Counted from the first letter of the stretch, positions 20,557 through 26,221 are shown. The stretch: 64,000 nt of DNA from GCF_057098645.1 NZ_CM169472.1, one strand, 5' to 3'. Numbers and translations are program-made. The notes: generated from the letters alone by a model not told the origin.

Positions 20557-20728
20557 TAAAAAAAGCCAGCGACTGACCTGAAAAAGAAGACGCTGGCTAA
20601 AAGGCCTTATATGTTTGTAGAGACTTATTTTTCACAGACAGCAATGATGCCTGTCAATATATTATCAATATGCGGATTGTTTCAGTTACAGATGCCTTAT
20701 TAAGGAAAAAAACAGCCAGCTGTAGTGG

Positions 20729-21379
20729 TCAAGTAATATTGGCCACGGTTTTACAGTAAAAATGGTATCTGTTCTCTGACTCTTCCGGCGTCAGCCCACC
20801 GTTATAATGGTGAGGTCTGACGCTGTTGTAGTAGTTCAATATGTAATCATTAATTTGCTGCCGGGCCTCGTCCTTGCCTGCGTAACCATTCGTTGGCACC
20901 CATTCTGTTTTCAGACTGCGGAAGAAGCGTTCCATGGGGCTGTTATCCCAGCAGTTTCCCCGCCGACTGACGCTTTGATTTATTCTGCAACGCCAGAGAA
21001 GTTGTTGATATTTAAGGCCTGTATACTGGCTTCCCTGGTCGCTATGGAACACGACATCCCGGGGTTGGCCACGCGTCTCATAGGCCATCCGCAGGGCACT
21101 GCTTATCAGTGCGGTATCGGCATGCGCTGACAGACTCCAGCCGATAACCCTGCGGGCAAAAAGATCCATAACAACCGCCAGATAGCACCAGCGATTTCCT
21201 GCCCAGAGATACGTAATATCTCCACACCATACCCGGTCTGGCTCCGGTACTGCGAACTGACGCTCAAGCAGATTCGGCAGGCTGGTATGCTCCTGACGGG
21301 CATTTTTATACTGATGTTTTCCGGGCTGACAACTGCTCAGGTTCAGATATTTCATCAGACGTCCGGCACGGTAACGGCT
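20729..21379 (-). pseudogene. IS911-like transposase OrfB, C-terminal part (split by IS629)
   Basis: Track ORF 20729-21472; the part beyond 21379 is read-through into IS629; IS3-family DDE motifs (…WCGDITYLW…HSDQGSQYT…[11 protein letters not shown]…). Confidence 0.75.
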
Positions 21380-21433
21380 TGAACCGCCCCGGGAATCCTG
21401 GAGACTAAACTTCCTGAGAAAGAGGTAAACAGG

Positions 21434-21760
21434 ATGACTAAAAATACTCGTTTTTCCCCTGAAGTCCGTCAACGGGCAGTCCGTATGGTTCTGGAAAGTC
21501 AGGGCGAATATGACTCACAATGGGCGACAATTTGTTCCATTGCTCCAAAGATTGGCTGTACGCCGGAGACTCTGCGTGTCTGGGTTCGCCAGCATGAGCG
21601 GGATACCGGGGGCGGTGATGGAGGGCTCACCACCGCTGAACGTCAGCGTCTGAAAGAGCTGGAGCGTGAAAATCGTGAACTGCGCCGCAGTAACGATATC
21701 CTTCGCCAGGCTTCCGCTTATTTTGCGAAGGCGGAGTTCGACCGCCTCTGGAAAAAATGA
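21434..21760 (+). CDS. IS629 transposase OrfA (copy 2), 108 aa
   Basis: Track ORF, one substitution relative to copy 1 OrfA. Confidence 0.9.
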
Positions 21761-22195
21761 TGCCACTGCTGGATAAGCTGCGTGAGCAGTACGGGGTCGG
21801 ACCGCTATGCAGCGAACTGCATATTGCCCCGTCAACGTATTACCACTGTCAGCAACAGCGACATCATCCGGATAAACGCAGTGCCCGTGCGCAGCGCGAT
21901 GACTGGCTGAAGAAAGAGATACAGCGCGTATACGATGAAAATCACAAGGTATACGGTGTGCGTAAAGTCTGGCGTCAGTTGTTACGGGAAGGTATCAGAG
22001 TGGCCAGATGCACTGTGGCACGTCTCATGGCGGTTATGGGACTTGCCGGTGTTCTCCGGGGTAAAAAGGTCCGTACGACCATCAGCCGGAAAGCCGTTGC
22101 CGCAGGCGACCGCGTAAACCGTCAGTTCGTGGCAGAACGACCTGACCAGCTGTGGGTGGCTGATTTTACTTACGTCAGCACATGGCAGGGCTTCG
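21757..22195 (+). pseudogene. IS629 OrfB (copy 2), N-terminal part, interrupted by the IS21-family element
   Basis: Track ORF 21757-22278 matches copy 1 OrfB up to …FTYVSTW.GFV, then runs into IS21-family terminal sequence. Confidence 0.85.
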
Positions 22196-22294
22196 TGCGT
22201 ATTCCGCTCTATTCGATCACGGATTGGCATCGAAGTCCGATCAGCGATTCGCATCCATTCGATCAACCGGGAACTTAACTTTTTCTACCGCTTT

Positions 22295-23066: not shown

Positions 23067-24602
23067 TCAGTGGTAGTAGCCCGGACCACGCAGGTTTTCA
23101 TGCTCTGAAGCATATGCCGGATGTTGTTCGCCCTGGCGGGATAATGGAAGCTCCAGGTTCTCCCGATGGTGACGCAGCAGATTGTCGATAAAGCGTCTGT
23201 CAGGGGCGTTATAGTGCAGGGCAACGTAACAGGCCTTTTCCAGCCGTTCCGGGCCGTATTTTTTCTGAAGTGCCAGCAGCCCCAGAACTGCACGATAAGC
23301 CAGTTCCGGATGGGGTTTTGCCTTCAGCATGGATTCAACCACCCGGCCTGTGGACGGGCCCGTACGTTTTCCCTGCTCGATCAGGCGTTCCGGTGTCCAT
23401 GTCCCGTGCTGCCGGTGGCGCTCTGGCATGTGAAGCGGATTGGTTGTGTGTTTATATTCATGTGTGCTGCGCGGATGTTGCGCCACACACTGCCCCTTGT
23501 GCCAGAGCTGTACCACCGACTGCCCCGCCTTCAGTGACAGACGCTGACCGACCAGTTCGTGTGGAACGGAGTACCAGTGACGGGCATATTCAACGTGGTA
23601 GTCAGGGCCAACCTTCACAGCTTTGTATTCCGTGTATTCATAAGGTGCCAGAGGCAGCGGAGAGAGTGCTGGCGCATCCAGTATGCGGAAGCGTTCTGCA
23701 CGGGTTTGATTGCCGTACCCCTTCATTGGCCGGTTATTCATGTCTGTCAGTAACTCCCTAAGGCGCGCATTCAGCGCCCTGAGCGTGTGGAAGGTTTCAT
23801 TACGGATGCGGGCAAGAAGCCATCGTTCAACGATGAGGACGCCGTTTTCTGCTTTTGGTTTATCTTTAGGTTTGCGTGGTCGGGCCGGGATGATAACCGT
23901 GCCATAGTGCTCAGCCAGTGCCTGATAACTGTCGTTGATGACAGGCTCATATCGATCGGCCTTTTTCACTGCGCTTCTGAGGTTATCGGGGATGAGCAGC
24001 TTCGGTACGCCGCCCAGGAAGGTCAGGCAACGGCTGTGGGCATTTAACCATGACATCATGTCCTGACCTTCGCACGCTTCAACGTAGGTATAGTTGGACG
24101 CCCCCATTACGGCCACGAAGATTGCCACGCGGCGTATCTCACCGGTGTCCGGATTAATAACAGGAACCGTAGGACCACAGAAGTCGATAAAAAGCTTTTC
24201 GCCGGCACGATGCTCCTGGCGCATGGAGAGACGTCGCGTTTTTTTCCACTCCCGGTAGCAACGGCAGAAGTGCGAGTATCCCATCGCTTTGTTACCCGCC
24301 TGTGCCTTGTATTCCATCCACAACAGTTGCCGCGTCACACCTGGTTTTCTCATTTCCGTATCGAAGTACAACATGTCAGGCATTACAAGCTCTGATGCAA
24401 AGGTGTCTTTGGGCGGAAAAATGAGTTTCTCCAGCGTGTCATGGGATATATCAGCAGGTAATGGCCATGACAGAGAAGAGGCTTTGAAGCGGGCAAGAAC
24501 CTCAAAAACGGTTGAGGCGCTGATGTGTAACGTCAGTCCGATACAACGGTTAGTCAGCTTCTTGTCGAACTTGAGCTGAAGGATCTTAAAACAGGTTTCC
24601 AT
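23067..24602 (-). CDS. istA: IS21-family IstA transposase, ~511 aa
   Basis: Track ORF 23067-24713 trimmed to METCFKIL...; large DDE transposase directly upstream of istB with a short overlap. Confidence 0.8.
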   Translation of the reverse strand: METCFKILQLKFDKKLTNRCIGLTLHISASTVFEVLARFKASSLSWPLPADISHDTLEKLIFPPKDTFASELVMPDMLYFDTEMRKPGVTRQLLWMEYKAQAGNKAMGYSHFCRCYREWKKTRRLSMRQEHRAGEKLFIDFCGPTVPVINPDTGEIRRVAIFVAVMGASNYTYVEACEGQDMMSWLNAHSRCLTFLGGVPKLLIPDNLRSAVKKADRYEPVINDSYQALAEHYGTVIIPARPRKPKDKPKAENGVLIVERWLLARIRNETFHTLRALNARLRELLTDMNNRPMKGYGNQTRAERFRILDAPALSPLPLAPYEYTEYKAVKVGPDYHVEYARHWYSVPHELVGQRLSLKAGQSVVQLWHKGQCVAQHPRSTHEYKHTTNPLHMPERHRQHGTWTPERLIEQGKRTGPSTGRVVESMLKAKPHPELAYRAVLGLLALQKKYGPERLEKACYVALHYNAPDRRFIDNLLRHHRENLELPLSRQGEQHPAYASEHENLRGPGYYH

Positions 24603-24839
24603 AGTGCTCCTGGATTTTCTCTTTCTGGACATTGACGTCTCCACTGGTTTAAACACGGCAATGGAGACTGTGGTGAAAAGAGTTAATTCCCGGAGTGACT
24701 GGCAGGATGCCAATCAATGATCGGAAGCATGCCAAATCGTGATCGATTGTGATGCCAAACTGTGATCGGAGATGGATGCCAAATCATGATCGATTCGAAT
24801 GCCAAACTGCGATCGATTCAGATGCCATTTTGCACTTCG

Positions 24840-25291
24840 TCTATGTGGCGTTCATCATTGATGTGTTTGCCGGATACATTGTGGGGTGGCGGGTCTCATC
24901 GTCCATGGAGACGACATTCGTGCTGGATGCACTGGAGCAGGCGTTATGGGCCCGTCGACCGTCCGGCACGGTCCATCACAGTGATAAAGGTTCTCAGTAT
25001 GTATCGCTGGCCTACACACAGCGGCTTAAGGAAGCCGGATTACTGGCATCAACAGGAAGTACAGGCGACTCGTATGACAACGCGATGGCGGAGAGCATCA
25101 ATGGTCTTTACAAAGCGGAGGTAATACACCGTAAGAGCTGGAAAAACCGTGCAGAAGTGGAACTGGCCACACTCACGTGGGTGGACTGGTATAACAATCG
25201 ACGATTGCTGGAAAGGCTGGGCCATACTCCTCCGGCAGAAGCAGAAAAAGCTTATTATGCTTCCATCGGAAACGATGATCTGGCAGCCTGA
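24840..25291 (+). pseudogene. IS629 OrfB (copy 2), C-terminal part
   Basis: Track ORF 24749-25291 matches copy 1 OrfB from [16 protein letters not shown]... to the end. Confidence 0.85.
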
Positions 25292-25551
25292 GTTCACAGA
25301 TAAAACACTCTCCAGGAAACCCGGGGCGGTTCAGCTCATCGGGACGCCGTTTTGAGTCAGCATTTCAGCCAGAGTGCGCGCGCCCGCAGAGCCCCGACTT
25401 TGGTTCCACGCCCGGCGTATTTCGCTGCACAACCTGACTCGTGCCGGATTAACCGTATCGCGTCGTTTTCGCCAGTACCGGTAACTGCTGCGGTGTATTT
25501 CCAGAGCAGAACACAGGCTGACAACCGTGTGGCTGTCACTTAGTCTGGCGG

Positions 25552-25863
25552 CTATCGTGAACCGTTCAGCGAGTCGGACATTAAGAGCGCGGTAGCCTTT
25601 TTTAATATCGTATTTTGTTCCTCCAGACGGCGAACTTGCTTTTCCAGCTCGCGGATACGTTGCTGGTCTGGAGTAATGGGTGTGGCAGAGGGCGTAATAC
25701 CCTGGCGCTCTCGCCTGAGCTGGCGTACCCAGCTCTCAAGCGTGGTTGAACCGACATTCATCGCTTCACTGGCCTGTCGATATGAGTAGCCCTTATCAAC
25801 AATCAGCTGTGCACATTCCAGCCTGAACTCAGGGGTGAAGGTTCGTTTGGTTTTCTTGTTCAT
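25552..25863 (-). CDS. IS911-like transposase OrfA, ~103 aa
   Basis: Track ORF 25552-25899 trimmed to [55 protein letters not shown]...; IS3-family OrfA helix-turn-helix and leucine zipper. Confidence 0.8.
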
Positions 25864-26221
25864 TAAGTCACCTGTTTTGTGTTGTGGTGAGAATATCACC
25901 TTTCATCAGGTGGCCAAATTTAGTGTGCCACTACAAGCACTGACTTTCGGTGGAGAGGTGCTGGCTCAAAAGGATAGATGTACTTCACATGTTGCTTCTA
26001 TATGGCAGTACATTTTCTGACAGACAGTGACGGATGTTGTCAAGATATTGTGTCATTTATAACCTGAATCAGGGGAGGCCGGAATGTTATCTGGCATTTT
26101 TAGCAGAGCCTGAATGCCATAATCACGGCTCCCGGCGTTGGCCGTCAGTGGGTGACACTGGCGGCTTTTTTGTTTTTCTTTACTTTCATTTTCTGTCGGC
26201 GGTGACGGAGACATACATCAG

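Follow-up and report, generated by a model that had tools for sequence, protein, structure and literature searches.

Insertion sequences (ISs) of three kinds lie one within another at positions 20721 to 25935 of a 64,000-nucleotide stretch of Escherichia coli DNA (GCF_057098645.1, NZ_CM169472.1; hereafter the window, numbered from its first letter), between the nanS-p and holin genes of a broken prophage. All three are known mobile elements. The outermost is an IS3-family, IS911-like element; it is split by a copy of IS629, which is itself split by an IS21-family element. Our analysis confirms that this nested structure is real and cleanly resolved. The best explanation, which we consider likely, is that three separate transpositions took place at one site of a defective lambdoid prophage. 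An earlier reading of the window by a model (the original prediction) had proposed these boundaries, termini, and target duplications (AGC, GCT, and CTTCG), and all proved to be as described when aligned to reference copies and to an empty site; on exact alignment the direct repeats are present at all three levels.

The termini were located by reading the window from 20400 to 26300, which resolved three sharply bounded elements. The outer element (20721-25935) has a total span of 5215 bp, with AGC on either side. IS629 spans 3954 bp (21380-25333), is bordered by GCT, and splits the outer element at 21379/21380, whereas the 2,639-bp IS21-family element (22196-24834) is bordered by CTTCG and splits IS629 at 22195/22196. 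Once the insert and one repeat copy are removed, the outer element measures 1258 bp and IS629 measures 1310 bp, and the orfB reading frames of both become whole again. The parts of the nest are as follows.

20718-20720, unstranded: left AGC copy of the outer-element target duplication; the window reads ...CAGCCAGC followed directly by TGTAGTGG, and the RM9131 empty site has a single AGC
20721-21379, - strand: right-end part of the outer element, with the right inverted repeat (IRR) and the 3' part of orfB (NCBIfam transpos_IS3, 302 bits)
21377-21379: left GCT copy of the IS629 target duplication, the last 3 bp of the outer right-end part
21380-22195, + strand: 5' part of IS629, with the left inverted repeat (IRL), orfA, the frameshift region, and the start of orfB, as far as the first catalytic-motif region
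21434-21760, + strand: orfA of the nested IS629
22191-22195: left CTTCG copy of the IS21 target duplication, within the IS629 5' part
22196-24834, - strand: intact IS21-family element (ISSso4 group), 2639 bp
22295-23050, - strand: istB, encoding full-length IstB of 251 amino acids
23067-24602, - strand: istA, encoding full-length IstA of 511 amino acids
24707-24816: multiple terminal repeats of the IS21-family element
24835-25333, + strand: 3' part of IS629, with the remainder of orfB and the IRR
24835-24839: right CTTCG copy of the IS21 target duplication, within the IS629 3' part
25334-25935, - strand: left-end part of the outer element, with the IRL, orfA, A AAA AAG slippery site, and 5' part of orfB
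25334-25336: right GCT copy of the IS629 target duplication, joining the outer left-end part; 20721-21379 plus 25337-25935 gives 1258 bp
25552-25863, - strand: orfA of the outer element
25936-25938, unstranded: right AGC copy of the outer-element target duplication

Short direct repeats can arise by chance, but coincidence does not account for the duplications in this nest, since excision at every level gives back exactly a sequence already known. Once spliced, the outer element is identical at 1258 of 1258 positions to an uninterrupted copy at the same site in O145:H28 strain RM9872 and in strain C325, and its two halves share exactly the 3-bp GCT on that intact copy. The spliced IS629 is likewise identical over its full length (1310/1310) to both IS629 copies of the RM9872 prophage and to a copy annotated by its depositors as “insertion sequence: IS3 family IS629” (LC567824.1); on intact IS629 copies its halves overlap by CTTCG, plus one ambiguous T. 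Finally, the reconstructed empty spacer between nanS-p and the holin gene, carrying a single AGC, is contiguous in 683 complete E. coli genomes (best match, 99.9%). In RM9131 the sequence of the empty site is ...ACAGCCAGCACTGAC..., and its single AGC falls exactly on the junction.

The assignment of the three elements to the IS3 family, IS629, and the IS21 family had been correct, as judged by NCBIfam models and by identity to annotated copies. The outer element begins TGTAGTGGTCAAG and finishes GTGCCACTACA, with terminal ends TGTAGTGG...CCACTACA. Its terminal inverted repeats are imperfect: the first 8 bp are identical, the TTGGCCAC block occurs in both, and the ends read TG...CA. These termini, together with the 3-bp AGC duplication checked against the empty site, are those of the IS3 family. 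Its orfA and orfB, the latter in the -1 frame, overlap at an A AAA AAG slippery site, and the spliced OrfB scores 302.4 bits against NCBIfam NF033516 (cut-off, 160), as an IS3-type DDE transposase.

The name of the outer element is less easily settled. It shares a 1258-bp length class with ISEc31 and IS911 and is ~92.5% identical in DNA to copies named ISEc31 by the Prokaryotic Genome Annotation Pipeline (PGAP), which is below the usual isoform level of at least 95%. It has in common with both ISEc31 and IS911 the orfA/orfB arrangement with an A AAA AAG site, TG...CA ends, the TTGGCCAC block, and a 3-bp duplication. About 937 records contain copies at 99% identity or more, labeled just “IS3 family”; the PGAP label is an unnamed “IS3 family transposase” (WP_085968792.1), curated phage records held no full copy, and NCBIfam names the family level only. 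Compared with the curated IS911A fragments of K-12, protein identity is 56% for OrfA and 49% for the N-terminal part of OrfB, while the ends have 80% nucleotide identity over the terminal 80 bp only. The same part of OrfB is 27% identical to IS629 OrfB. With the ISfinder isoform level applied for IS911 (about ≥95% protein or ≥90% DNA identity), these values fall short, and the element is a relative of IS911 rather than IS911. “IS911-like,” the term used in the original prediction, is thus fair as a statement of kinship but not of identity.

Two sets of side observations concern the outer element and its insertion site. The Rfam family “isrC Hfq-binding sRNA” of Salmonella (sRNA, small RNA) matches over its full length at 25745-25867 on the - strand (150 bits; gathering score, 39), overlying the 5' end of the outer-element orfA. 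This suggests that isrC, as a family, corresponds in essence to the 5' portion of the transcript of an IS911-like IS. The element is inserted in the left arm of a 9-bp inverted repeat (AGCCAGCAC...GTGCTGGCT; window positions 20705-20720 and 25936-25975), which in the empty-site reconstruction is followed on the - strand by T7 and thus resembles a terminator hairpin directed opposite to the late operon. Another hairpin of this kind, also on the - strand, occurs at 20563-20579, just past the nanS-p stop codon.

The middle element can be named with confidence. It carries TGAACCGCCCCGGG at both ends in inverted orientation, contains the Rfam RF01497 ALIL frameshift pseudoknot (21715-21831, 120 bits), and once spliced encodes an OrfB scoring 316 bits against the NCBIfam IS3-family cut-off of 160. 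Its 1310-bp length, complete identity, ALIL pseudoknot, and GCT duplication, the last checked against the intact outer element, are all those of IS629. The IS629 of the O145:H28 Stx2a phage Stx2_499 (LC567824.1) has the same sequence, orfA/orfB, ALIL, 3-bp duplication, and TGAACCGCCCCGGG ends. Unlike that copy, the nested IS629 has its orfB split after nucleotide (nt) 816 by the IS21-family element, and it therefore has no full-length transposase in cis.

The inner element has consecutive istA and istB genes, both full length, whose products match the NCBIfam models for IS21 transposase (NF033546; 284.7 bits, cut-off 160) and IstB helper ATPase (NF038214; 257.8 bits, cut-off 200). It is 99.5 to 99.85% identical to chromosomal and plasmid copies in which PGAP names IstB “IS21-like element ISSso4 family,” and against annotated intact copies IstA differs by 1 amino acid and IstB by none. 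The multiple terminal repeats that had been proposed are indeed present. Five copies of an ~18-bp motif (ATGCCAAAYYGTGATCGA-like) stand at ~23-bp spacing at the istA-proximal end, with at least one at the other end. These repeated motifs, the TG...CA termini, and a duplication within the 4- to 8-bp range (CTTCG, checked against intact IS629) are as expected for IS21-family ends. In its istA, istB, repeats, TG...CA ends, and 5-bp duplication, the element is like the ISSso4-group IS21 elements of E. coli and Shigella, with no notable difference, and appears to be a standard, active copy. The innermost element alone keeps both its transposition genes (istA and istB) and its ends intact. The two outer elements retain their ends and orfA but have a split transposase gene, and their movement would require transposase from other copies.

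To place these insertions in order, we compared their junctions with those of other strains, using 200-bp queries against 5,426 complete E. coli genomes. The outer element occupies the nanS-p/holin site in 24 of these genomes, and all of those examined have it whole. Its insertion thus dates back to a common ancestor, and the first step is demonstrated. By contrast with this older insertion common to 24 genomes, the two inner junctions, between the outer element and IS629 and between IS629 and the IS21-family element, had no contiguous match in any of the 5,426, with two-piece hits elsewhere only. A chimeric 173-amino-acid open reading frame (ORF) was not found in a gene-position index, nor was a 30-mer junction found in metagenome contigs. 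We take both inner junctions to be recent and private to this lineage, the lack of matches being as expected for such events. The two junctions serve as a lineage-specific marker, and the site as a whole offers a clean worked case of dating insertions by comparative genomics.

Based on these observations, we propose the following course of events. In an ancestor common to the O145:H28 strains and a few others, a 1258-bp IS3-family element close to ISEc31 entered the nanS-p/holin spacer, duplicating AGC. In the lineage of the present genome, IS629, the most abundant IS of these strains, would then have entered orfB of the outer element with duplication of GCT. Lastly, an ISSso4-type IS21-family element would have entered orfB of the nested IS629, duplicating CTTCG. 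The original prediction held that this order can be read from the nesting. That holds for the first step, by virtue of the 24 genomes with the outer element; for the other two, the arrival of IS629 at this site before the IS21-family element is the most parsimonious order, though not a proven one, and it is in this sense that we infer it. The further description as successive simple transpositions stands for the three nested products with their intact duplications, but other routes leave the same duplications. A general caution follows: nesting and intact duplications prove the events, and do not by themselves reveal where each event occurred.

We therefore weighed the other routes. In the first, only two events would have taken place at this site: the IS21-family element would have entered IS629 elsewhere, and the resulting 3954-bp composite would have moved whole into the outer element, mobilized by transposase from another IS629 copy. 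Such a history would leave the same structure, with the same three duplications. The composite keeps both IS629 ends, with orfA intact, and transposase could come from the many IS629 copies of these strains (up to 52 matching places per genome). However, the internal IS629::IS21 junction was found in no other genome searched, and the sole recurrent composite of this type (four genomes) is confined to one locus and gives no sign of moving as a unit. Moreover, IS3-family transposases are known to act preferentially in cis, as established for IS911, which also counts against this route. We consider this route unlikely. Less likely again is that the nest arose elsewhere, in a chromosomal or plasmid copy of the outer element, and was brought into the prophage copy by homologous recombination or gene conversion. 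Such an exchange would alter neither the flanking prophage sequence nor the AGC duplication, and the outer element is present at several places per genome (median, 2; up to 17). However, the outer::IS629 junction occurs in no other record, and nothing points to the additional donor locus that this route requires. The weakest alternative is an assembly artefact, in which repeated IS copies were collapsed or mis-joined into an apparent nest; although IS629 and the outer element are multicopy repeats, which commonly break short-read assemblies, and homopolymer-length differences from relatives at 16271, 16346, and 19304 hint at some sequencing noise, we rejected it as very unlikely given the matched duplications and perfect restoration at all three levels, since a mis-join at a repeat would not yield matching 3-, 3-, and 5-bp duplications level by level. 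Nor would it give halves whose spliced lengths are exactly 1258 and 1310 bp, with 100% identity to intact copies, or restore the empty site perfectly.

Three separate transpositions at this site thus remain the likely reading, and three points weigh against it. The assembly could be judged from its sequence only. The window covers only 64 kb of the genome, and a copy of the composite or of the whole stack elsewhere would favor unit mobilization or gene conversion. Finally, no genome was found with the outer::IS629 junction but without the IS21-family element, which leaves the order of the second and third steps without comparative support.

Nested ISs are a familiar outcome of IS expansion in enterohemorrhagic E. 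coli and Shigella genomes. In line with this, we regard the nest as the ordinary outcome of repeated transposition. Each of its elements was already known, and nesting of ISs is well documented. A comparable case is IS911A::IS30A in the cryptic prophage CP4-6 of K-12, where IS911 is split by IS30, although that nest has two levels versus three here. Other E. coli nests of an ISSso4-type element in IS629 are independent of the present one and also have two levels. None of the genomes searched has this same nest of three levels, for which we see no evident biological consequence.

These independent nests allowed us to compare where in IS629 the ISSso4-type element inserts. It has hit orfB independently at nt ~786 (duplication CTGAT), nt ~817 (CTTCG), and nt ~968 (ATAAAGG); the duplications differ, and such events therefore do occur. 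The loci compared were L001 (4231-6869), L006, L013, L014, and L015, and window positions 22196-24834. All three sites fall inside a 190-bp stretch of orfB, with the two elements always in the same orientation to each other, and two of the sites lie on codons of the conserved ADFTY and HSDKGSQY motifs. If the ISSso4-type element preferentially targeted the catalytic-core coding part of IS629 orfB, one IS would be selectively inactivating another. We regard such a preference as improbable and the clustering of three insertions as an anecdote. A search for IS-in-IS preference in the flanks of viral contigs yielded only 3 loci, too few to judge, and none was flanked by IS629 or the outer element. 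The composite at nt ~968 occurs in four genomes (SLK172 and three Korean chicken isolates), always at the same ylcI-terminase prophage site; recurrence at a single site is uninformative, neither supporting nor refuting movement as a unit. In L001, the IS21-split IS629 is itself joined, at another position, to 445 bp of the outer IS3-family element. An IS256-family transposase annotation flanks the IS21-type element in CFSAN061770 and strain 98203.

The location of the stack within the prophage raises the question of its functional effect. The prophage in the window is lambdoid and sits next to ybhC, in the lambda attB region; ybhB and the bio operon lie beyond it. Most closely related to it are its counterparts in O145:H28 strains and in C325. 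The features relevant to late transcription are as follows.

16546-17236, + strand: antiterminator Q gene, annotation transferred from RM9872 and C325
17220-17248, + strand: promoter-like site, candidate pR', from a consensus scan
17282-17303, + strand: terminator-like hairpin, candidate tR', from a consensus scan
18707-20556, + strand: nanS-p (SASA-family esterase), frameshifted by a 1-bp deletion in a G-run at ~19304
26140-26166, + strand: strong terminator-like hairpin
26222-26428, + strand: holin gene
26428-26925, + strand: endolysin gene
26922-27359, + strand: gene for an Rz-type lysis protein
27509-28126: Rha-family regulator gene, followed by terminase and head genes

Two small genes stand between the candidate tR' hairpin and nanS-p, and the lysis cassette (holin, endolysin, and Rz-type protein) is intact. 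The stack lies between nanS-p and the holin gene, as had been stated, and thereby between Q/pR' and the holin gene.

From this position, the original prediction had concluded that the stack probably blocks late transcription and adds to the defects of the prophage. On this reading, the stack would terminate transcripts from pR' and so silence the lysis and head genes. In its favor are the location and the fact that, in the sense of the late transcript, the 5.2 kb inserted are for the most part untranslated and include several weak terminator-like sites. However, we found this claim to be unsupported, and a block of this kind seems unlikely to us. We called promoters and terminators with a consensus scan and a shuffled control, so that all such sites are candidates and not functional evidence. 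Between 16400 and 26500 there are 16 terminator-like sites versus 9.9 ± 3.5 in shuffled sequence, within about 2 standard deviations, and the stack itself contains only weak ones. Stronger terminator-like hairpins lie in the native path (17282, 18594, and 26140). With such hairpins between pR' and the holin gene, late expression would therefore need a Q-modified, terminator-resistant polymerase in any case. It is established lambdoid biology that Q-modified polymerase reads through terminators. As described in one report (PMC7547250), transcripts from pR' are terminated immediately downstream unless antiterminated.

Precedents from related phages argue in the same direction. Prophage Sp5 of strain Sakai has an IS upstream of its lysis region and is nonetheless the sole Sakai prophage with full function, transferring to K-12 (PMC2669165); the IS in question is an IS629 between the late promoter region and the lysis genes, the same position as the stack. 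IS629/IS1203 and ISEc8 copies have also been reported in the Q-S region of Stx2a phages (PMC10462455). ISs in a comparable position are thus found in Stx2a phages and in Sp5, which transfers normally, and these cases correct the tempting but unsupported idea that a lambdoid late operon is silenced whenever an IS lies in the Q-to-S interval.

The question is also moot, considering the state of the prophage. An additional copy of IS629 (copy 1; 9576-10885, - strand), 97.5% identical to the nested one and lacking a target duplication (aag...acc), abuts a 1,133-bp deletion relative to FHI_NMBU_03 (L012, 7848-8980). Lost with it are all but the first 30 nt of cro, together with nutR, cII, and the 5' half of replication gene O. 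In the FHI_NMBU_03 reference, nutR is canonical, with boxA CGCTCTTA and boxB GCCCTGAAAAAGGGC. Since nutR falls within the deletion, read-through from pR to Q is probably lost. This whole prophage lineage also lacks the tail genes between FI and a J remnant. Of the components of a functional lambdoid late operon and its control, Q, candidate pR' and tR', and the lysis cassette are thus present, whereas cro, cII, nutR, half of O, and the tail genes are gone. The prophage is already inactive on both sides of the stack, upstream and downstream, and the stack would therefore have no phenotype, and probably has no functional effect, of its own.

Several minor observations concern the remainder of the prophage. 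The nanS-p context had suggested an Stx phage, but there are no stx or tRNA genes between Q and nanS-p, and we rejected this candidate; it is an effector-carrying defective lambdoid prophage at ybhC. Near IS629 copy 1, C325 and RM9872 have a different IS629 27 bp away in opposite orientation, with much larger deletions. The remaining part of O shows an 18-bp length difference, presumably in the ori iteron region (window 10929 versus L012 9024-9042 of FHI_NMBU_03). Single-base homopolymer differences from C325 occur at ~19304, 16271, and 16346: at 19304, G5 versus G6 frameshifts nanS-p into ORFs at 18707-19336 and 19219-20556, and the T and G runs upstream of Q (16271 and 16346) are intergenic. 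All three may be either true mutations or errors of sequencing. RM9872 has an ISEc20 inserted only a few bp from this nanS-p G-run. The O145:H28 relatives have further ISs of their own in this prophage, ISEc20 inside nanS-p and IS629 inside the endolysin gene (RM9872, L004, 11733-12929 and 16764-17977), both of which the window lacks. Comparison of these sequences indicates that the same defective prophage is gathering different IS insertions in different lineages. Farther downstream, a 1331-bp element at 39259-40589 has IS2-type ends (TAGACTGGCCCC...GGGGCAAATCCA) and ORFs resembling InsC/InsD. In C325 the sequences that flank it are separated by 3.7 kb, and the nleH-cif region of C325 is missing here; the element is flanked by a 4-bp match only (TATG), versus the usual 5-bp duplication.

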